A DNA stretch of 32,000 nt, from positions 900,001-932,000 of the forward strand of contig JAUIFI010000001.1 in NCBI GenBank assembly GCA_030429505.1, given 5' to 3'. Positions 1 through 26,847 of the stretch are shown piece after piece. The stretch comes from Candidatus Saccharimonadota bacterium (GTDB taxonomy: Bacteria; Patescibacteriota; Gracilibacteria; UBA4473). Position 1 is the stretch's first letter; every line of letters begins with the position of its first letter. Made by a program: the position numbers and the translations under genes. The notes under the pieces were generated by a model. The model was not told where the DNA came from and made no database searches. It was given only the letters and a program-made list of their open reading frames with translations.

Positions 1-1566
1 ATGGATCTGAATAGCCTTTCCCTCAACCAACCGAGGCTTAAATGCCTGAATACCAAGCCTATGAAGAGTTGGAGCTCGATTAAGTAAGACATGCTTATCA
101 CGAATTACCTCCTCAAGCACATCCCACACAATCTTTTCTCCACTTTTTATAATTTTTTCAGCGCTCTTTACATTAAAAGCCAACTCATACTTCACCAAAC
201 GAGAAATCACAAAAGGCTTAAATAATTCAAGCATAATATACTTTGGCAAACCACACTCATCTATCCTTAGTTGTGGCCCAACCACAATCACAGAACGACC
301 AGAGTAATCCACTCGTTTTCCCAAAAGATTTTGTCGAAAACGCCCCTGCTTTCCTTTTAACATATCAGACAATGATTTGAGTTTTCGTTTTTGAACGTAA
401 TTCATCCCTGCTTTTGAGTTTCTCACTTGATTCGAAATCAAAATATCCACAGCCTCTTGGAGCATTCGTTTTTCATTTCGACAAATAATTTCAGGAGCTC
501 CAAGTTGAATTAGTTTCTTAAGACGCTGATTCCTATTAATAACCCTACGATACAAATCATTAAGATCTGAGGTTGCAAACCTTCCGCCATCCAATTGAAC
601 CATGGGCCGAAGATCTGGAGGAATAACCGGAATAACCGTTAAAACCATCCACTCTGGTTTCATCTTGCTTCGATGAAAAGACCCAGCCAATCTCATCCTT
701 TTTACAATCTTTTTCTGTTTTTGCCCAGAAGATTTTTTATACTCCTCCTTCATATCACTAATAAATTTTTCTAAATTTATACGTTGCAAAAGCTCTCGAA
801 CAGCATCAGCACCCACCCCAGCTCGAAAAATATTTCCAAACTTCATAGAAACATTTCTATAATCACTCTCTGTTAAAACCTCTCCCTCTCGAAGAAGTTT
901 TAGTTCACCCTTTGCGGTGTCAAAATTCTCATTAATGCTTTCTAAATTCGCCACCAATTCCTGCTCAAGAGTAATAATGTCGGCTTCTTTTATATCCCCA
1001 GCCTTTAAAGATTTTTTAGCAGCACTCAAACTCTCACTATTCTCTTTTTTCGTTTGCTCTATCATTTTTTTATACTCCTCTTCTAATTTAACCAACTCTT
1101 TTTCTTTAGCATCTTCATCAACATCAACCACAATATATGAAGCAAAATAAACAACTTGTTCTAACCTTTTCACCGGCAACCCCAAAAGCAAACCTATTTT
1201 TGAAGGGGTTGAGCGTAGAAACCAAGTATGTGTTACTGGCACAGCAAGTTTTATATGCCCCATCTGCTCTCGGCGAACAATTGAGCGCGTCACCTCCACA
1301 CCACACACTTCACAAACAATTCCTCGATATCGAATTCGTTTATATTTTCCACAAGCACATTCCCAGTTTTTTACTGGACCAAAAACCTTTTGACAAAAAA
1401 GACCATCTCTCTCAGGTTTTTGAGTTCTATAATTAATAGTCTCCGGTTTTGTAATCTCTCCACGAGACCATCCTAAAATATCTTCAGGGGAAGCAATCGA
1501 CAAGGCAATAGCATTAAAGTCTTTTGCTGGCTTACGTCCGGAAGAAGTTTGAGAAGGAGGAACCAT
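1..1566 (-). CDS. rpoC: DNA-directed RNA polymerase subunit beta-prime, N-terminal 522 codons (ORF continues past the left edge)
   Basis: The ORF track omits it because no stop codon lies inside the window. Manual reverse-strand translation from the ATG at 1566 gives [75 protein letters not shown]. Further on come [34 protein letters not shown] and [16 protein letters not shown], all hallmark beta-prime motifs. The frame stays open to base 1. Confidence 0.95.
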
Positions 1567-1571
1567 AGGAT

Positions 1572-1604
1572 AAAAAAGAAAGAAAAAAAGACGTTCAAAC
1601 GTCT
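1572..1604 (-). terminator. Terminator-like hairpin plus U-tract inside the rpoC leader (possible attenuator)
   Basis: AGACGTTCAAACGTCT (1589-1604) is a perfect palindrome, giving a 6-bp stem with a 4-nt loop. On the reverse strand it is followed by TTTTTTTCTTTCTTTTTT, which ends 5 nt before the rpoC ATG. Confidence 0.4.
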
Positions 1605-5147: not shown

Positions 5148-5591
5148 ATGATTTTGCTCGAAAACAAACGCATTCGATTTGAATACGAAGTGATCGAGAC
5201 ATTGAGTGCCGGCATGGTACTTGAAGGATGGGAGGTAAAATCTCTTCGCTCCAAACACGGAAGCCTTAAGTCCGCTTGGATAAAAATCACAGAAAACGAA
5301 ACATGGCTCGAAAATTTTCAAATCCCCGCTTGGCCCTTCTCTACACAAGAACAAAATAAAAACCGCTCCAAAAAATTACTTCTCACCAAGAAAGAAATTC
5401 ACAAACTTCAACGAAAAACAAAAGAAAAAGGCATTACCCTTGTCCCTCTTTCCATTCAAACACAAGGCAAACACATAAAATGCGAAATTGCTCTTGGAAA
5501 AGGACGAAAAAAATACGAAAAAAAAGAGCGTCTTAAAGAAAGAGATGTTAAGCGACAAACAGCCCAGACATTGAAAAAATTTGCCAACTAA
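5148..5591 (+). CDS. smpB: SsrA-binding protein SmpB
   Basis: ENKRIRFEYEVIETLSAGMVLEGWEVKSLR plus a basic C-terminal tail is the typical SmpB pattern. Confidence 0.9.
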   Translation: MILLENKRIRFEYEVIETLSAGMVLEGWEVKSLRSKHGSLKSAWIKITENETWLENFQIPAWPFSTQEQNKNRSKKLLLTKKEIHKLQRKTKEKGITLVPLSIQTQGKHIKCEIALGKGRKKYEKKERLKERDVKRQTAQTLKKFAN

Positions 5592-8601: not shown

Positions 8602-8624
8602 CGCATCATATTGACCGTTTCTTC

Positions 8625-8667
8625 AAGACCAGAACAAGAAATATATTTTCTTGTTCTGGTCTTTTTT
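8625..8667 (+). terminator. Rho-independent terminator
   Basis: A perfect 17-bp stem, AAGACCAGAACAAGAAA / TTTCTTGTTCTGGTCTT, encloses a 5-nt loop and is followed by a T-run. Confidence 0.85.
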
Positions 8668-8682
8668 CCGTATACTCAACTC

Positions 8683-10062
8683 ATGATACTAAATCCTGCC
8701 ATATTCCGAGCCTACGACATCCGTGGAGAATCATTTAAGGACTTTGATGAAGACGGATTTTTTTCTACTGCCGCTGGATTTGGAAAATATATCATCGATA
8801 ATTTTAAAATCAAAAATCCCCACATCTTTGTTTCCGGCGACGGCAGATCCTCTCAGCCCCAACTTTGGCCGGCAGTCGTCGCTGGACTCCAGTCAGTCGG
8901 ATGTAACGTCACTTGGGGAGATACTATCCCGACGCCATTAAATTACTTTGCTTTTCATGAAGGCGATTTTGACGGAGCGATTCAAATTTCTGCCTCTCAC
9001 AATCCACCCCAATACAACGGGATGAAATTCAGAAGTCCACGTGATTTTACATGTGGAGAAGAACTCCAAAAGATTAGAAAACTTGCCGAATGTATAGAGT
9101 GTCGCAAAGATGTTTCTTTTCAAGATTCAGCTCAAAAATCAGAAAAAAAAGACTTTTTACCCGCCTATCAAAAAAAACTTCAATCGATTATTCCCAAACA
9201 ACATTCTAAAAAAATAATTGTTGATGCAGGAAACGCCGTTCCAGGAATGTTTTATCCAGACCTACTAGAATCATTTGGACATAAGGTTCAAAGACTCTTT
9301 TGTGATCTCGATCCTACTTTTCCAAACCACCAACCAGACCCAGAACGCAAAGAAAATCTAATCCATCTCATCCAAGCAATGAAAGAATCTTCGGCTGATT
9401 TTGGATTTGCGTACGATGGTGATGGAGACAGACTTGGAGTCGTCTTGTCGGATGGTACTATTTTATCTGGAGACAAAATTATCTACTGTCTCGCCTCAGA
9501 TTTTCTCCAAAGACATCCTGGCGCCAAGATAGCCGTCGATGTCATGATATCACAAACCTTGATTGAAAAGCTTCGCTCAAAAGGCGCAGAAGTTGTAATG
9601 TCTCGAACTGGTCGAGCCTATATCATCGAAACAGCTGAAAAAGCTGGAGCATTGCTCGGAGGAGAGATGTCGGGACACTTCGTCTTTGGCGAAGATTTCT
9701 ACCAACATGACGACGGCATGCTTGCGAGCCTGCGTTTTCTCCAAGCCATTGAAAACAACCCCGATCTTATTACCGAAGTGACACAAGGTTGGCCTGTAAT
9801 GAAAGAAATATCGGATGTCATTACCGTTCCTGACACAGAAAAATTTTCTATTATGGAAAAAATAGCCAAAGATATTCAGCAAAAATTTTCAGATATCAAC
9901 ACCCTAGACGGTATTCGTATCGACCTAGGTCAAAGCGAATGGGTCATCATCCGACCCTCAAACACCACCCCTCTCATACGTATCCGCATGGAAATACAAG
10001 ATGAAAAAAAGATGGCAGAAATGAAAGATTATTTTATGAATATTTTACAAAAACACGTTTAA
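8683..10062 (+). CDS. Phosphoglucomutase/phosphomannomutase-family phosphohexose mutase
   Basis: It has ISASHNPPQYNGMKF (catalytic Ser loop), FAYDGDGDRLGVV (Mg site) and GGEMSGHFVF (sugar-binding loop). I prefer the ATG at 8683 (MILNPAIFRAYDIRG), because the track TTG start at 8611 lies inside the upstream terminator. Confidence 0.85.
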   Translation: MILNPAIFRAYDIRGESFKDFDEDGFFSTAAGFGKYIIDNFKIKNPHIFVSGDGRSSQPQLWPAVVAGLQSVGCNVTWGDTIPTPLNYFAFHEGDFDGAIQISASHNPPQYNGMKFRSPRDFTCGEELQKIRKLAECIECRKDVSFQDSAQKSEKKDFLPAYQKKLQSIIPKQHSKKIIVDAGNAVPGMFYPDLLESFGHKVQRLFCDLDPTFPNHQPDPERKENLIHLIQAMKESSADFGFAYDGDGDRLGVVLSDGTILSGDKIIYCLASDFLQRHPGAKIAVDVMISQTLIEKLRSKGAEVVMSRTGRAYIIETAEKAGALLGGEMSGHFVFGEDFYQHDDGMLASLRFLQAIENNPDLITEVTQGWPVMKEISDVITVPDTEKFSIMEKIAKDIQQKFSDINTLDGIRIDLGQSEWVIIRPSNTTPLIRIRMEIQDEKKMAEMKDYFMNILQKHV

Positions 10063-10147: not shown

Positions 10148-10176
10148 TTGACATACCCTGAAGACTACATTAAAAA
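10148..10176 (+). promoter_or_regulatory. Candidate promoter TTGACA-17-TAAAAA
   Basis: TTGACA is at 10148-10153, followed by a 17-nt spacer and TAAAAA at 10171-10176. No CDS follows on this strand. Confidence 0.4.
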
Positions 10177-10182
10177 TAATCG

Positions 10183-10304
10183 TGTTTAATCTGCTCTGAT
10201 ATATACGTCTGGAGCAATGCCGTAATCAGAGACAGATTAGATTTTCCCGGCTCCTTCAGTATTGGCTTGACTCTCCTGATCACAAGAGTCAAGCCATTTT
10301 TTTT
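10183..10304 (+). ncRNA. Candidate ~120-nt small RNA (or structured 3' UTR of the mutase gene)
   Basis: It runs from a promoter-like element to a strong terminator. A 13-14 bp stem pairs 10187-10200 with 10225-10239 (one bulge). Loop GGAGC (10211-10215) is complementary to GCTCC (10250-10254). Confidence 0.4.
10264..10304 (+). terminator. Rho-independent terminator
   Basis: GGCTTGACTCT (10264-10274) pairs with AGAGTCAAGCC (10285-10295) across a 10-nt loop, followed by eight T (10297-10304). Confidence 0.85.
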
Positions 10305-16538: not shown

Positions 16539-16564
16539 TAATGTAGAGTACAAAATTATATACA

Positions 16565-16605
16565 GCGACCAAGGAAAAAACTCTTTCTTTGGTCGCACTT
16601 TTTTA
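16565..16605 (+). terminator. Rho-independent terminator
   Basis: GCGACCAAGG (16565-16574) pairs with CTTTGGTCGC (16587-16596), followed by a T-run at 16599-16604. Confidence 0.75.
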
Positions 16606-16621
16606 TTATTTCCCTAAAAAC

Positions 16622-19957: not shown

Positions 19958-20064
19958 TCCCTGCTGAAAATGAAGCAAAGGTGAACTCGTTCACTGCACA
20001 AAAAAACAAAAAGAGGTACAAGGAATAAAAAACAAACCTCAAAATTTTTTTGTGTTTCAAAATC

Positions 20065-21972
20065 ATGAAACAAAAGTATCGAGGTTTGGTTTTATTGCTA
20101 TTTGGAAATATTATTTGTCTTGCTCAGACCACAGAATCATCATTTAAATCAGGAGATTTTAACCGTGTTCAAATCACAGAAATTTCTCCACATAAAATAG
20201 AAAATGAGGAAGAATGGTTTGAATTTTCCGTTGAAGGAAGTCAGGCAATTGATATCAGTAACTGGAAAATCTCCAACGGAGCATCGGTAAAAAAAACATT
20301 CCATAGTGTTAAAGATCAATTACACCTTGGACAAGGTGGAGAGTGGCTGCAGGGAAAATCAAGTTTTCTGGACAGTAACGGCACGATTCGAAACGAATGG
20401 CATTATACTGGGAGTGGCTCGTCTGTGACATTATCCGAAGATGCACTAATTCTCCTTCCGAATCCAAAGGCTTTTTTATGGTGGGAAAAGTCGCCAATAT
20501 CCCTTCCGAATAATGGTGGTACCATTCAAATAGTAGATGAAGATGATAGGATCCTTGATGAAATCACCTATCCAGAAGGAAGTTCCGGAACTCGCGATGG
20601 AACTACCTATGCTGACACTTGGAACAGGCATTCAGAAAAGCCTAATACTCTTTTCCCCCTGACATTTCATAAAGAAAACCAGACATTTCCTCACTCCAAA
20701 GGGGAAGAAAACCTTGCATCTCCTACTTTTCCCGAAGAGATAACTCTCCTCATATCAGAAATTTCACCCAAAGCAGATGATGCTATTTTTGATTTTCTAG
20801 AGTTATTTGTGGCGAACGCTCCGATTGACGGAGCGAATCTAAAATACCTAGAAGTTAAACATAATGGCACTCCACTTTTCTTTTTTGACTATGATTTCAT
20901 AGTTCAGGCGGGAGATTTCATCATAATTAACTTCGATAACCTTCCATTTTCTCTTCACTCAATTGGCAATATTCATCATATATCCACCGACAAAAAAGAT
21001 GGCTTATCATCCGGTTCAGGAACTGTGGAAATTATTCTTTATTCAGGAACTGCTTGGGAGGCGCGAGAGGATTTTCTTTGCTGGCAAAAAGATAGTCTAA
21101 GTCAAACCGAATCAAATCGAGTTGAAAGAGTTATACGAGAGCAAAACTGGAAAGGGAGCTGCTATGATATTTCTGATATCATTACCAATGAATCAATAGC
21201 CAGGGCTTCTTTTGCCATCGATTCTGATACGAAAAATGACTTTATTAGCCATTTCAACGGTTCGAAAGGAAAAGAAAACAAGCTACAGAACCACCCCCCT
21301 CAGGCAAAAATAGTCGTACAAGGAGCTCGTCGGATTTTCAAAAGCTCGCTCAATTTTACTGGAGACGAATCAAACGATCCTGATGGGAAACATGATCTGA
21401 AAAATTTTTTATGGAAAGTGAATGGTACTCAGTGTTCAGGTCCGGAAGATGGTTGGTACTGGACTAAAGAATGTCTAGAAGAATCCACTCGTCAAAATCC
21501 CAATTCTATCCAATTCTCAAAACGAGGGGAATATACTGTCAGCTTAACAGTAACTGACTTTTCTGGGGCAGAACATACTACTCAGGTGATAATTGAAGTA
21601 ACCGAAAATGGAATTAATCCATTTGGATTGTCTGCGAGCGGTGGGAGTAGTTCAGCTTTTGATTCATCACTCAGAGATTGGGCGAAAAAAGAAGTTCAGA
21701 AAAAACTTAAAACTCCCGAAACCAAATCTCTCGAAGTTCGAACGAAAGGCAAAAACCAATACCAAGCGTCACCAGATTTTTTTGATACGTTTTTAGACCA
21801 TCTTCCACTAGATTTACTTCAAAAGACTCCACCAGAGCTTGCCAAAGAAAAGGAATATTTTGAGAAAAAATATCTCGTCGAACGTCCTAGGTATCGCTTT
21901 CAGAGAGACAGATTTACAGACAAAGATCGAAAATTAATAGCCAAGAATTTAGGATTTATCTATCTGAAGTAG
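20065..21972 (+). CDS. Secreted protein with two lamin-tail-domain-like modules, a PKD-like domain and a basic C-terminal tail
   Basis: The signal peptide is MKQKYRGLVLLLFGNIICLAQT. LTD-like stretches are VQITEISPH...EEWFEF...IDISNWKIS and LLISEISPK...DFLELFV. The PKD-like stretch is LNFTGDESNDPDGKHDL...WKVNG...GEYTVSLTVTDFSGAEH. The track TTG start at 20050 is rejected. Confidence 0.65.
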   Translation: MKQKYRGLVLLLFGNIICLAQTTESSFKSGDFNRVQITEISPHKIENEEEWFEFSVEGSQAIDISNWKISNGASVKKTFHSVKDQLHLGQGGEWLQGKSSFLDSNGTIRNEWHYTGSGSSVTLSEDALILLPNPKAFLWWEKSPISLPNNGGTIQIVDEDDRILDEITYPEGSSGTRDGTTYADTWNRHSEKPNTLFPLTFHKENQTFPHSKGEENLASPTFPEEITLLISEISPKADDAIFDFLELFVANAPIDGANLKYLEVKHNGTPLFFFDYDFIVQAGDFIIINFDNLPFSLHSIGNIHHISTDKKDGLSSGSGTVEIILYSGTAWEAREDFLCWQKDSLSQTESNRVERVIREQNWKGSCYDISDIITNESIARASFAIDSDTKNDFISHFNGSKGKENKLQNHPPQAKIVVQGARRIFKSSLNFTGDESNDPDGKHDLKNFLWKVNGTQCSGPEDGWYWTKECLEESTRQNPNSIQFSKRGEYTVSLTVTDFSGAEHTTQVIIEVTENGINPFGLSASGGSSSAFDSSLRDWAKKEVQKKLKTPETKSLEVRTKGKNQYQASPDFFDTFLDHLPLDLLQKTPPELAKEKEYFEKKYLVERPRYRFQRDRFTDKDRKLIAKNLGFIYLK

Positions 21973-23000: not shown

Positions 23001-23471
23001 TCAATGAGCTTGAGATGCATAATATGCCACTCCAATCGCATCAGCACTATCGTCAATTTGAGGAGATTTTTTTAAGCCAAATAGTTTTTGTGCCATAGTT
23101 TTCATATCAGTTTTTGTAGCCTTTCCGTTCCCCGTAAAGACAGATTTTACCTCTACAGGTTTTGGTTCTACGATTTCAGCACCATATTCTCGAGCTAAAT
23201 AAATCAAAGCCCCCCTCACTTGAGCAACTTTTATTCCGGTTGTTACATTCTGCACAAAAAATAAATCCTCAATCGATACGATATCTGGTTGGTGTTTGTC
23301 TAAAAGTTTCTTAAAGTCATCCGCAATCTCAACCAATCGATCTGGAAAATAACTATTGGACTTGGTTTTAATCACTCCAAATGTTTTGAGTTTTATTTCT
23401 CGCTTCGTATTCGCACAAAGAACTGCAAATCCGCAAATTCCAAAACCTGGATCAATACCCAAGATAGTCAT
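23001..23471 (-). CDS. ruvC: Crossover junction endodeoxyribonuclease RuvC
   Basis: It has MTILGIDPGFGICGFAV, VSIEDLFF and SADAIGVAYY, matching the RuvC DEDD catalytic residues, and is 156 aa long. Confidence 0.9.
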   Translation of the reverse strand: MTILGIDPGFGICGFAVLCANTKREIKLKTFGVIKTKSNSYFPDRLVEIADDFKKLLDKHQPDIVSIEDLFFVQNVTTGIKVAQVRGALIYLAREYGAEIVEPKPVEVKSVFTGNGKATKTDMKTMAQKLFGLKKSPQIDDSADAIGVAYYASQAH

Positions 23472-23556: not shown

Positions 23557-24204
23557 ATGGACCTACAAACACAAAAAAAACGTTATCAAGATAATTGGAA
23601 AAAATACCAACCCCAATTTGGCAGTATCCCTTGGGAAAGCATTCCTGATTTTTTGTATTTTATAGAAATCATCCCCTCAATTACTCTTCAAAAATCAGGA
23701 GAAAAAATAACTCAGTCACTTAAAAAAGTTGTTCCAAACGCAAAGGGATTGTGGGTGCCTTCGGAACGCCTACACATCACCCTTGCCCTTCCTGGTCGAC
23801 AAGGAGTCCATTTCGAAGGGAATGATATAAAGTTTATGGAAAAAAAATTGAAAGAAATCTTAAAAAAATACCAACCTTTTGAGATACAGCTTGGCTCTAT
23901 CAATTGTTTTCCCAACGTCCTTTTTCGAGAAGTATATGATGAGACGGGGCAACTCTACCAGCTTCATAACGAAATCTGTCACACCATTCCGTTTTCAGAA
24001 AAGCCTGAATATCGATTTGAAAACTATCTTCCTCATATGGCACTCTTTTATGGACAAGCCTCAAAAGGAGGATTCGATAATCCAGGTTTTGATCGGAAAA
24101 TACCACAAGAAAAGATGCTGATCGAGAAAGTGTGCTTTGGTAAAGCCAAAAACATTACAAAGAATACATATCAAAAACAAATTCTTAAAGAATTCACATT
24201 ATAA
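23557..24204 (+). CDS. 2H phosphoesterase superfamily protein (LigT-like)
   Basis: The first motif is RLHITLAL (H73) and the second is LPHMALFYG (H160), 87 residues apart. FEIQLGSINCFPNVLFREV between them matches the LigT fold pattern. Confidence 0.6.
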   Translation: MDLQTQKKRYQDNWKKYQPQFGSIPWESIPDFLYFIEIIPSITLQKSGEKITQSLKKVVPNAKGLWVPSERLHITLALPGRQGVHFEGNDIKFMEKKLKEILKKYQPFEIQLGSINCFPNVLFREVYDETGQLYQLHNEICHTIPFSEKPEYRFENYLPHMALFYGQASKGGFDNPGFDRKIPQEKMLIEKVCFGKAKNITKNTYQKQILKEFTL

Positions 24205-24280
24205 GTTCTCATATTGAGAGAAAATAAAAAGAGAAAACCCTTTTCCTGAGGGATGTTTTCGTATTATCACAAAAAAAGTT

Positions 24281-24309
24281 TTGACAAAAAACATACGTTG
24301 GAGTACAAT
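24281..24309 (+). promoter_or_regulatory. Exact consensus sigma70 promoter TTGACA-17-TACAAT
   Basis: TTGACA is at 24281-24286, followed by a 17-nt spacer and TACAAT at 24304-24309. No ORF follows for more than 600 nt. Confidence 0.7.
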
Positions 24310-24315
24310 GGTCTG

Positions 24316-24891
24316 AAGTTCAAAAGTTAAAAAGGTCAAAAATAAAAACAAACACCTTACAACAAAGAACTTCTTAAAGGGGCTTTCGAAGGGGAAAAAA
24401 GTTCTTTGTCACACACGGACAATAAAACGGAGAGGATTGAGAAAACGGGCAAACTGATCAAATAATTATTATATCTTTTTTTATTCTTTATTGTACGCAG
24501 TTTTGCTGCGTTTTCTCGCTTCTCTCCGCTTTGCGATGACGTTATAGACGCCTTTGACTACGTTTATAATGCACCACAAGACGCGAGAGGCTTGCGATTC
24601 TCAAAAGACGACTTTTTCTTCATTTGAAGAGTTAGCCGCCTTCTCGAGAACCGTTTTGAGGTAAAAACAACAAATTTACAGCTCGTATTGTATCCTTTTT
24701 TGATCTAAAAATCAAGAAAACACAATACACCCAGAGCTCCGACTGGTGACGCGGTCCCGCTTTATAGCGGAAGAAGTTGCACCAAAGCAAGGCTATGAGA
24801 GATTTAGTTCCTAGTCAGGACTTTCCAAAACCGGCTGAAAAGCTTGCCTCACTATTATCAGAGGTATCAGGCTTCCTCAGTCGGTTTTTTT
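24316..24891 (+). ncRNA. Candidate ~575-nt structured non-coding RNA or long leader, class unassigned
   Basis: It is ORF-free and bounded by a consensus promoter and a hairpin plus seven T. Extended helices: 24363-24372/24399-24408 (10 bp); 24428-24434/24522-24528 with 24439-24447/24509-24517 and inner 24496-24500/24506-24510; 24600-24606/24654-24660 with inner 24617-24621/24626-24630; 24680-24691/24722-24738 with an inner TTTTTTGAT/ATCAAGAAAA stem; and 24739-24745/24878-24884. Confidence 0.55.
24831..24891 (+). terminator. Rho-independent terminator (branched/extended hairpin plus seven T)
   Basis: CCGGCTGA (24831-24838) pairs with TCAGTCGG (24877-24884), with one G-U pair. Inner pairings are AAGC/GCTT and CCTC/GAGG. 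The T-run spans 24885-24891. Confidence 0.7.
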
Positions 24892-24942
24892 CTTTATCTC
24901 TATAAAAAATATTCGTACAATAAAAAAGCTTTCGAAAAAATT

Positions 24943-26847
24943 ATGAATTTTTCATTGCCGTCACATCATAAACCACTTGGACCAGATCGTCTGGGTTTTT
25001 TGGAAATATTCAAAAAATCATGTAAACGAACAATCTTGGAAATGTTGCGTACGTCGCAGTCAGGACATCCGGGAGGATCCCTTTCTAGCTTAGATCTTCT
25101 CGCAACCTTATATGTTTTTCGACTCTCACAAACAAAAGAAAAATTAATTGTCTCTAATGGACATATTTCTCCAGGTGTGTATTCGGTACTCGCAGAAATA
25201 GGCGTCGTAAAAAAAGATGATGTTATCAAAGGTTTTCGACAAATGGGTTCCATCTTTGAAGGACACATAACCCGACATATTCCAAGTATTCCGTATGGAA
25301 CAGGTCCTTTGGGAATTGGCGTTTCTGTTGCTTCGGGTATGGCTTTAGCAGAAAAAAAGAAAAAATCAGGACAAAGAGTCTTTGCTTTGCTTGGAGATGG
25401 TGAAGCACAAGAAGGACAGGTATACGAAATGGCTCTTTTTGCTGCCAAGTATCAACTCAATAATTTTACTGTTTTTGTAGATCACAACCGTGTTCAACTC
25501 ACAGATAGCTTAAAAAATATTATGCCTATAGACATTGCAGCTGTGTTTAAGGCAACACAATGGAACGTACTCGAAATCGATGGACATGATCCAGAGGCAA
25601 TTTGGGTTGCTCTCGGGAAGTCAGAAAAAGAAAAAAATCGCCCCACAGTAATCATCGGGCAAACCATCATGGGATATGGAATCAAAGACCTAGAAGAAGA
25701 TGGGAAAAAATTCAAATCTACCTGGCACGGCAAAGCACCTAACCCTGACCAAATTGATGATATGCTCAAGTCTTTATCTCTCACCAAAGACGAACAAAAA
25801 ATCCTCGACACATTCCGAAGAGACACAAAATTCCGCCCCTCAAAACCAGAATTTATAAAAAATCTTACCAAATTAAAAATAAAAACAGGAACACCCATTG
25901 TTTATGATGCTGACATCACTACAGATTGTCGATCAGCCTATGGAAAAGCTTTGTTTGATCTCGCCAAACATAATCCAAATATCGTAGCTGGCACAGCCGA
26001 TCTGGGAGGATCGGTCATGACCAAGTTTGTCAAAGCCGACTTGCCGGAACAATTTATCGAATTTGGCATCTGTGAGCAAAACATGGTTTCCGCCTCCGGA
26101 GGTTTATCCTTGTCTTCATACATTCCGTTTTGTTCGACTTTTGGAGCCTTTATGACGAGTCGCGCCAAAGATCAAGCACGCGTCAATGATATTAACCGCA
26201 CGAATGTCAAAATGGTATCCACTCATTGCGGCTTGTCAGTCGGTGAAGATGGACCAACCCATCAAGCGATTGATGACATGGGATCAATGATCGGACTTTT
26301 CAATACACATGTGATCGAACCCGCCGACCCGAATCATTGCGACCGCATTATTCGTTATGCATCCAGTCATTATGGTAACTTCTACGTTCGCATGGGACGA
26401 CACAAGATTCCGGTTTTGACCAAAGAAGATGGCTCTGTGTTTTTTGATAAAAAGTACAAATACGAATACGGGAAGACTGACGTTCTTCGTTCCGGGAAAA
26501 AAGTCACCATTGTCGCCACCGGCGCATGTGTCATTGAAGCCCTCAAAGCTCGTGAAGAAAGTGGAGTCGATGCGGAAATTATCATTGCCAGTTCTATCAA
26601 GCAGTTTGACGACACTTTGGCAAAATCACTCAAAAAGACCCAAAAAGTTATCACTGTTGAGGATCATAATTATCAGTCGGGTCTAGGGGCGGCAGTTGCG
26701 CTTTTTGCTACCCAAAAAGGCGTTCAATTGAAAAAATTTGAAACTTTAGCCGTCAAAGAATACCAATTGTCCGGGAAAGCTTCAGAGCTCTATCATGCGG
26801 CTGGTATTGATCGGAAAGCAATTGTGAAAGTGTTGAAAAAAATGTAA
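24943..26847 (+). CDS. tkt: Transketolase (N- and C-terminal halves fused, 634 aa)
   Basis: It has SQSGHPGGSLSSLDLLATLY, GDGEAQEGQVYEMALFA (TPP-binding GDG motif), and a C-terminal pyrimidine-binding half with EQNMVSASGGLS and GEDGPTHQAIDD. I prefer the ATG at 24943, because the track TTG at 24844 lies inside the terminator hairpin. Confidence 0.9.
   Translation: MNFSLPSHHKPLGPDRLGFLEIFKKSCKRTILEMLRTSQSGHPGGSLSSLDLLATLYVFRLSQTKEKLIVSNGHISPGVYSVLAEIGVVKKDDVIKGFRQMGSIFEGHITRHIPSIPYGTGPLGIGVSVASGMALAEKKKKSGQRVFALLGDGEAQEGQVYEMALFAAKYQLNNFTVFVDHNRVQLTDSLKNIMPIDIAAVFKATQWNVLEIDGHDPEAIWVALGKSEKEKNRPTVIIGQTIMGYGIKDLEEDGKKFKSTWHGKAPNPDQIDDMLKSLSLTKDEQKILDTFRRDTKFRPSKPEFIKNLTKLKIKTGTPIVYDADITTDCRSAYGKALFDLAKHNPNIVAGTADLGGSVMTKFVKADLPEQFIEFGICEQNMVSASGGLSLSSYIPFCSTFGAFMTSRAKDQARVNDINRTNVKMVSTHCGLSVGEDGPTHQAIDDMGSMIGLFNTHVIEPADPNHCDRIIRYASSHYGNFYVRMGRHKIPVLTKEDGSVFFDKKYKYEYGKTDVLRSGKKVTIVATGACVIEALKAREESGVDAEIIIASSIKQFDDTLAKSLKKTQKVITVEDHNYQSGLGAAVALFATQKGVQLKKFETLAVKEYQLSGKASELYHAAGIDRKAIVKVLKKM

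Follow-up and report, generated by a model that had tools for sequence, protein, structure and literature searches.

A gene-free, strongly folding gap upstream of transketolase in a small CPR genome is a candidate lineage-specific multi-hairpin RNA gene

We analysed a 32,000-nt stretch of contig JAUIFI010000001.1 (hereafter the window, numbered from its first letter; assembly GCA_030429505.1) from a Candidatus Saccharimonadota bacterium of the candidate phyla radiation (CPR), and focused on a 738-nt gap at 24205–24942 that separates a 2H phosphoesterase gene from the transketolase gene (tkt). The gap lacks a coding signal, has matches to a promoter and an intrinsic terminator, and has a thermodynamic excess of structure; these signals are real and statistically unusual. 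Our preferred reading, to which we give a probability of roughly 45%, is that the gap holds a stand-alone, lineage-specific, independently transcribed non-coding RNA gene on the + strand, whose product of about 577 nt would fold into a series of hairpins. Four features make this the most likely reading of the sequence: the promoter, a suitably spaced terminator on the same strand, the scarcity of non-coding DNA in this clade and an exceptional folding signal. Its main rival takes the gap for palindromic DNA without function, located at a break in synteny.

The gap begins directly after the open reading frame (ORF) of the 2H/LigT-like phosphoesterase (23557–24204, +), which itself follows RuvC (23001–23471, −), and ends at the ATG of tkt (24943–26847, +), beyond which lies a DUF2238 gene (−). 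It is the largest gap in the window, followed by one of about 435 nt before rpoC and another of 277 nt, and it stands out among genes that are tightly packed: the 4-bp overlaps on which an earlier note about this DNA had remarked occur in three gene pairs. At about 1 Mb, the genomes of CPR bacteria hold hardly any superfluous DNA, and in 164 related CPR loci, totalling 1.17 Mb, not a single internal stretch of at least 350 nt lacked a 70-codon open frame; the gap is therefore abnormal, and these genomes do not normally keep such gaps. We rejected misuse of genetic code 25 as its cause, because TGA is a real stop that ends 7 of the 28 genes in the window (ATGA overlaps included), as in the standard code, and read-through frames yield no gene. 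The tkt product is identical to database protein P0001 (634 aa; 100% identity, 100% coverage), which is encoded on a contig of 1,023,206 bp, and its next best relatives, from metagenome-assembled genomes (MAGs) named ‘Candidatus Gracilibacteria/Peregrinibacteria/Peribacteria’, share at most 71% identity with it.

Searches for protein-coding sequence in the gap came back empty. The longest start-to-stop ORF has 52 aa, in keeping with the earlier note’s statement that none reaches 60 aa, and nearly all ORFs in the gap start with TTG or GTG and lack a ribosome-binding site. Pfam searches of all six frames gave nothing credible at E ≤ 1, and no stop-free segment of at least 28 aa in any of the six frames had a match at E ≤ 10 among 5.8 billion proteins. 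In tblastn searches with ORFs from around the relatives’ tkt and 2H genes, 4272 of them from loci L001–L158 and a further set from L159–L166, matches fell in the flanking genes only, with no pseudogene trace. We thus rejected a decayed protein gene, which the earlier note had named among the outcomes that would be fatal to its own proposal of a non-coding RNA: the ORFs of relatives leave no trace in the gap.

The predicted layout of the gap, with folding energies and z scores for both strands, is as follows.

24238–24262, + strand: small hairpin CCCTT...GAGGG with a T-rich tail, from the terminator scan; candidate weak terminator of the 2H phosphoesterase gene.
24281–24309, + strand: putative sigma-70-type promoter TTGACA-17-TACAAT, matching the consensus at 11/12 positions.
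24316–24361, + strand: A-rich, essentially unstructured 5′ segment, read from the sequence (windows in 24226–24450 have z −0.3 to −1.2 on +).
24362–24409, + strand: hairpin A, with arms of 14 nt that are 93% complementary (−11.6 kcal/mol, z −1.6 on +; −14.8 kcal/mol, z −4.2 on −).
24424–24532, + strand: hairpin B, long and interrupted, whose 24-nt outer arms enclose an inner stem and an AT-rich apex (−39.3 kcal/mol, z −5.2 on +; −33.7 kcal/mol, z −5.1 on −).
24538–24572, + strand: hairpin C, 12 bp, two of them G-U pairs (−9.8 kcal/mol, z −4.0 on +; −6.2 kcal/mol, z −0.7 on −).
24577–24658, + strand: hairpin D (−26.8 kcal/mol, z −1.8 on +; −31.9 kcal/mol, z −4.7 on −, where it forms a 27–29-bp stem).
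24680–24738, + strand: hairpin E (−16.3 kcal/mol, z −6.4 on +; −20.2 kcal/mol, z −4.1 on −).
24739–24826, + strand: segment F, without significant structure (z −0.8 on +, +0.2 on −).
24827–24891, + strand: hairpin G followed by seven T, putative intrinsic terminator (−28.4 kcal/mol, z −5.9 on +; −22.9 kcal/mol on −).
24893–24921, + strand: candidate tkt promoter TTTATC-17-TACAAT, weak, with 3/6 matches in the −35 box.

The promoter match at 24281–24309 is the only 11/12 match to the sigma-70 consensus in the window, which confirms the earlier note’s choice of it as the best. Dinucleotide shuffles produce 0.76 such matches per window over both strands, so that the chance of one falling inside this gap is about 0.02. 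It shares its type, TTGAC(A/G)-16/17-TACAAT, with the rpoC promoter (TTGACG-16-TACAAT at 1690–1663), and from its position transcription would start at about 24316. The region 24205–24320 is, apart from the small hairpin near its start, unstructured (z −0.5). At the other end, 576 nt downstream, the extended hairpin and seven T that had been proposed as the closing element are present: hairpin G is 62 nt long (24827–24888), has a 12-bp basal stem (AAAACCGGCUGA/UCAGUCGGUUUU), leads into a T-run at 24885–24891, and is more stable on the + strand than on the − strand. Its complex loop caused a simple terminator scan to overlook it; other genes in the window also end in hairpins with T-runs, for example at 16554–16607. 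Judged from sequence, the + strand thus carries both hexamers within the 16–18-nt spacing of a sigma-70 promoter and the hairpin with U-run of an intrinsic terminator.

Between these two elements the + strand is over-stable, with z −6.6 for the 580-nt fold. In a sliding scan of the 32 kb, seven consecutive 150-nt windows (24376–24975) had z < −2, the next longest run being three, and the 600-nt mean z of −3.4 in the gap lies about 4.7 standard deviations off the window mean. The near-continuous series of long helices that had been drawn from the sequence holds up except in segment F, which contains a small hairpin, CCGCUUUAUAGCGG, at 24757–24770 and is otherwise loose. Two of its details also had to be given up. 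The supposed nested three-helix domain at 24428–24528 is one long interrupted hairpin, with no three-helix junction; the sole Rfam matches to this hairpin B are microRNA-precursor models, that is, those of a generic hairpin. The long helix at 24739–24884 does not stand on its own: inverted-repeat analysis showed that it shares one 3′ arm with the stem of hairpin G, hence the two compete, and the 5′ end of segment F (CCGACUGG) would be able to compete for the terminator 3′ arm. Taken together, the folds fit a chain of simple independent hairpins, not an ‘ornate’ tertiary fold, and palindromes that matter at the DNA level could also give such a picture.

Known RNA families do not account for the gap. 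Against all 4227 Rfam families, cmscan of the window gave nothing at gathering threshold in the gap, and with the cut-off relaxed to E ≤ 10, for stretches of 951 nt and 421 nt, returned only microRNA-like, small nucleolar RNA and small RNA noise; ARAGORN found no tRNA and no transfer-messenger RNA (tmRNA) in the window. The earlier note had seen no hallmarks of tmRNA, of RNase P RNA on the promoter strand or of signal recognition particle (SRP) RNA, and had described the gap as non-coding without being able to assign it to a large-RNA family, and these searches agree with it on all counts; on the + strand neither of the conserved RNase P regions CR-I (GGAAAGUCC) and CR-V (ACAGAAnnCGGCUUA) is present. 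tmRNA (RF00023 and permuted forms) was rejected for want of any ARAGORN or Rfam match at gathering threshold or E ≤ 10, and an nhmmer profile built from the tmRNAs of four relatives, which Rfam scores at 78–102 bits, does not match the gap. SRP RNA and 6S RNA were rejected because Rfam returned neither at E ≤ 10; instead of the internal bubble between two stems that is demanded of 6S RNA, hairpin B has an apex that is open and AT-rich. OLE, ROOL, GOLLD, HEARO and raiA gave no covariance-model match even at E ≤ 10 and were rejected as well. The suggestion that the gap belongs with such large ornate RNAs had been made on length alone and is not supported, given six simple hairpins, no strand asymmetry and no homolog in the collections searched. 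Riboswitch, T-box and leader families are likewise absent from the gap by Rfam. As far as covariance models can tell, then, tmRNA, RNase P RNA, SRP RNA, 6S RNA, OLE, ROOL, GOLLD and riboswitches are excluded. Two DNA-level candidates were also rejected: a replication origin, as there is no TTATCCACA at ≤1 mismatch in the gap and the cumulative GC skew falls steadily across it, and a CRISPR or tandem array, as there is no repeated unit.

Comparison with relatives places the gap at a junction. The RuvC-(hypothetical)-2H arrangement is kept in two related loci (L163 and L167), where the genes after 2H differ and the gap after 2H is <300 nt; because the arrangement is kept and the following genes are not, the gap coincides with a synteny breakpoint. 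The nearest relatives (tkt 68–71% identical) have the order tmRNA-relA-hypothetical-PBP2-(GDSL lipase)-tkt, with 70–140 nt before tkt. Across the 69 loci with a measurable gap, the space upstream of tkt is mostly 0–160 nt, and no comparable gap lies next to tkt or 2H in these 69 tkt loci or in four 2H-relative contexts. A Magasanikbacteria MAG carries another long palindrome immediately before tkt, a perfect inverted repeat of 31 bp made up of TACGAA-type units (L034 3846–3954, and the same in L113 2847–2951; −45.7 kcal/mol, z −8.7); its sequence is unrelated to the hairpins in the window.

Several results weigh against an RNA gene. No homolog was found by nhmmer and blastn in the 164 related CPR loci; a covariance model of hairpin B, run against 170 loci, hit only unrelated long hairpins (in L045 and L034/L113) at E 0.025 or worse; and neither blastn against phages and plasmids nor two exact-pattern scans of viral contigs gave a match. 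Without a homolog there is no conservation and no covariation, an outcome that the earlier note had said would sink its proposal; with the closest relative at only 71% tkt identity, however, the lack of conservation is weak evidence against function. The G+C content of the gap is not above that of the flanking genes. Both strands fold equally well (−172.8 kcal/mol and 18 G-U pairs on +, −172.1 kcal/mol and 23 G-U pairs on −), with hairpins B, C and G more stable on the + strand and A, D and E on the − strand, and such strand symmetry is the pattern that DNA-level palindromes would give. Finally, no GNRA or UUCG tetraloops and no multi-way junctions were seen in the folds, which were read by eye.

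These points bear most directly on the possibility that the gap is non-functional or DNA-level palindromic sequence at a rearrangement breakpoint, consisting of decayed hairpins derived from insertion sequences or resembling miniature inverted-repeat transposable elements (MITEs), or of recombination debris, with promoter- and terminator-like sites that are fortuitous or serve the flanking genes. We hold this to be rather unlikely, if a serious contender. Its location fits, since the gap sits exactly where synteny ends, RuvC-hypothetical-2H being kept on one side and tkt following PBP2 in the nearest relatives; the hairpins are strand-symmetric in energy and G-U content, conservation was detected nowhere, and long intergenic palindromes do occur in CPR genomes, as the 31-bp repeat upstream of tkt exemplifies. 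Against it, a streamlined 1-Mb genome, and 1.17 Mb of relatives without a comparable gap, argue that useless DNA would not be kept. The six hairpins (A–E and G) share no sequence with one another, and no second copy of them exists in the 32-kb window. Their stems are imperfect (83–93% complementary), unlike the repeats of young mobile elements, and chance is unlikely to have supplied both a consensus promoter and a strong terminator in the right order and orientation. The gap might instead be a very long regulated 5′ leader of tkt, transcribed from 24281–24309, with hairpin G as an attenuator and read-through into tkt set by 24739–24752 and 24827–24838 pairing alternately with the 3′ arm at 24871–24888. 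The strand is that of tkt, the terminator ends 52 nt before the ATG, two upstream segments can indeed pair with the same terminator arm, and tkt’s own promoter candidate is weak. Yet a long leader is not a property of tkt in this clade, given the 0–160 nt upstream of it in relatives, where tkt often lies directly behind another gene; Rfam finds no riboswitch, T-box or leader; and segment F, where a sensor would sit directly before the terminator, is not significantly structured. The competing arm copies the 5′ arm of the terminator instead of sequestering it, an unusual geometry for an antiterminator, attenuation does not need a 520-nt string of simple hairpins, the terminator is strong, and a TACAAT box lies 22–27 nt before the tkt ATG. 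We consider this explanation unlikely, and the suggestion of an unusually long tkt leader, which the earlier note had offered beside that of a new RNA, is not supported.

A functional RNA could also lie on the − strand, either as a transcript of hairpins D, E and A in their stabler − forms or as a very reduced RNase P RNA, in which the reverse complement of hairpin G would be P3 and GGAAAGUCC would come after it. From 24826 to 24632 on the − strand, RNase-P-like motifs occur in canonical order, with GGAAAGUCC, found nowhere else in the window, directly after a long hairpin. The window’s only GGAAAGTCC lies at 24826–24818 (−), with 0.25 expected in the whole window, and is followed, in RNase P order, by CAUAG, GUGCAAC, a CCGC-loop-GCGGGACC hairpin and CGAGAAGGCGGCUAA; a 9/12 promoter-like site is found at 24715–24687 (−). 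No Rfam RNase P model nevertheless gave a hit at E ≤ 10, even with the search narrowed to 421 nt, and bacterial RNase P RNA (RF00010/RF00011) was rejected despite GGAAAGUCC and a CR-V-like site with three mismatches. A P4 helix would be limited to 4 bp, with its 3′ strand held inside a 27-bp hairpin (−31.9 kcal/mol), and about 170 nt would separate the P4 strands, too few for a bacterial specificity domain. The right-hand end has no good − promoter, there is no canonical − terminator, and the motif matches were found post hoc; we treat the series as chance and think a − strand RNA very unlikely. Least probable of all, to our minds, is that the gap is coding after all, for at least one small protein missed by the annotation, such as a type I toxin with its antisense RNA. 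Both strands carry small ORFs (34 aa with a hydrophobic N-terminus at 24461–24357 on −; 31–36 aa on +), and both are structured, as in sense/antisense pairs. These ORFs share the poor starts noted above, no frame matches any of the 5.8 billion proteins at E ≤ 10 or any Pfam family, and hydrophobic, F/L-rich frames are to be expected from T-rich sequence.

Returning to a stand-alone RNA gene on the + strand, we infer transcription, the strand used, the transcript ends and any function from the features above. Transcription would start near 24316, about 7 nt past the consensus promoter, and end near 24891 at the hairpin and U7, giving an RNA of about 577 nt with a 45-nt A-rich single-stranded 5′ end, stem-loops A–E, the loose segment F and terminator hairpin G. 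The terminator would insulate tkt rather than regulate it, and tkt would be read from its own weak promoter 22–27 nt before the ATG. That tkt probably has its own promoter is suggested by TACAAT at 24916–24921 with TTTATC at 17-nt spacing, by the unstructured tkt 5′ region (z +0.6) and by the apparent commonness of short leaders; the candidate is absent from the promoter-scan list because its −35 box is weak. In many genes of the window only a few nucleotides separate a −10-like box from the start codon, and a Shine–Dalgarno sequence is missing (upstream of 22969 (−), 16677, 17060, 17855 and 24943), a pattern which suggests that leaderless or short-leader mRNAs are widespread in this genome. 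A palindromic core, TTTCGAA, occurs twice, as GGGGCTTTCGAAGGGG in the loop of hairpin A (24383–24391) and as AAGCTTTCGAAAAA between the tkt −10 box and the ATG (24929–24936); the pair may be a shared protein-binding site or chance.

By analogy with multi-hairpin regulators such as RNAIII, the predicted RNA might act in trans, either with its loops and single-stranded 5′ end as base-pairing sites or as a partner that binds or sequesters a protein. RNAIII of Staphylococcus aureus is a trans-acting regulator of 514 nt with 14 stem-loops; the RNA predicted here would resemble it in length, in having its own promoter and terminator hairpin, in being a chain of independent stem-loops and in its narrow lineage, but has no sequence or Rfam relation to it, no embedded conserved small ORF and no C-rich loop motif. 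With OLE (RF01071), ROOL and GOLLD the gap has in common only the size class of about 0.6 kb and an intergenic, non-coding nature; it lacks a covariance-model match (E ≤ 10), evident multi-way junctions or pseudoknots and conserved family members. A tRNA or phage context is common for ROOL and GOLLD, while the window has no tRNA, and OLE belongs to Firmicute extremophiles with OLE-associated proteins, which this host is not. The genes for the housekeeping RNAs (tmRNA, RNase P, SRP and 6S RNA) are similar in that a strong promoter and terminator surround a non-coding stretch in a 1-Mb genome, and SmpB is encoded in the window (5148–5591) and GGAAAGUCC occurs on the − strand of the gap; none of these RNAs is detected here by ARAGORN or Rfam, however, and the relatives’ tmRNA profile does not match the gap. 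Repetitive extragenic palindromic (REP) or BIME-like units, MITEs and PATE-type IS200/IS605 derivatives share with it clustered imperfect inverted repeats, equal folding of either strand and a position at a synteny breakpoint, but the gap’s hairpins are all different and have no second copy in the window, phages or plasmids, and inspection by eye found no terminal inverted repeats or target duplications.

An orphan gene for a free-standing bacterial RNA with several hairpins, broadly a familiar type, is thus plausible. A bolder version, which we regard as a long shot, would make it an undescribed, highly expressed structured RNA of about 0.58 kb from one Gracilibacteria/Peregrinibacteria-like CPR lineage, driven by a promoter of the rpoC class and with a role of its own (protein sequestration, scaffolding or trans-regulation) that would define a new class of large RNA. 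To our knowledge almost no regulatory RNA is known from CPR bacteria, and in the literature on CPR non-coding RNAs we found nothing relevant. A 577-nt non-coding unit kept in such a genome would be among the few candidate lineage-specific RNAs in the radiation. Should the gap turn out to be palindromic debris, it would show that promoter, terminator and folding-energy signals from one sequence can mimic an RNA gene, a caution for scans for non-coding RNA in single genomes.

Some further sites in the window and its relatives deserve mention. SmpB is encoded in the window with no tmRNA gene nearby; the relatives’ canonical tmRNA lies beside relA, 5–7 kb upstream of tkt (L159 3002–3419, L165 2264–2674, L160 1–415 and L166 1–408), and L159 2797–2815 repeats the 3′ end of the tmRNA, which may be an integration scar. 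The N-terminal part of rpoC runs off the left edge of the window (1–1602, −; Pfam RNA_pol_Rpb1_1/2), and the gene upstream of it is an NTP-transferase, not rpoB. The intervening AT-rich gap of 435 nt (1603–2037) holds the rpoC promoter at 1690–1663 and several palindromes (1729–2018), and four near-matches to the DnaA box lie around rpoC, at 443, 1345, 1697 and 1947. The most extreme single window of the folding scan outside the tkt gap, 20776–20925 (+), falls inside an LTD/PKD-domain gene (20050–21972), with z −7.2 in the scan and −4.2 when refolded. At 8625–8663, just inside the start of the phosphoglucomutase gene (8611–10062), a perfect 17-bp palindrome (AAGACCAGAACAAGAAA / TTTCTTGTTCTGGTCTT) shows strong structure on either strand. 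A 10/12 promoter-like site, TTGACA-18-AAAAAT at 10148–10177 (+), points into a 253-nt gap between convergent genes that also contains a palindrome with 17-nt arms (10263–10296); this gap could hold a small RNA or simply be a bidirectional terminator.

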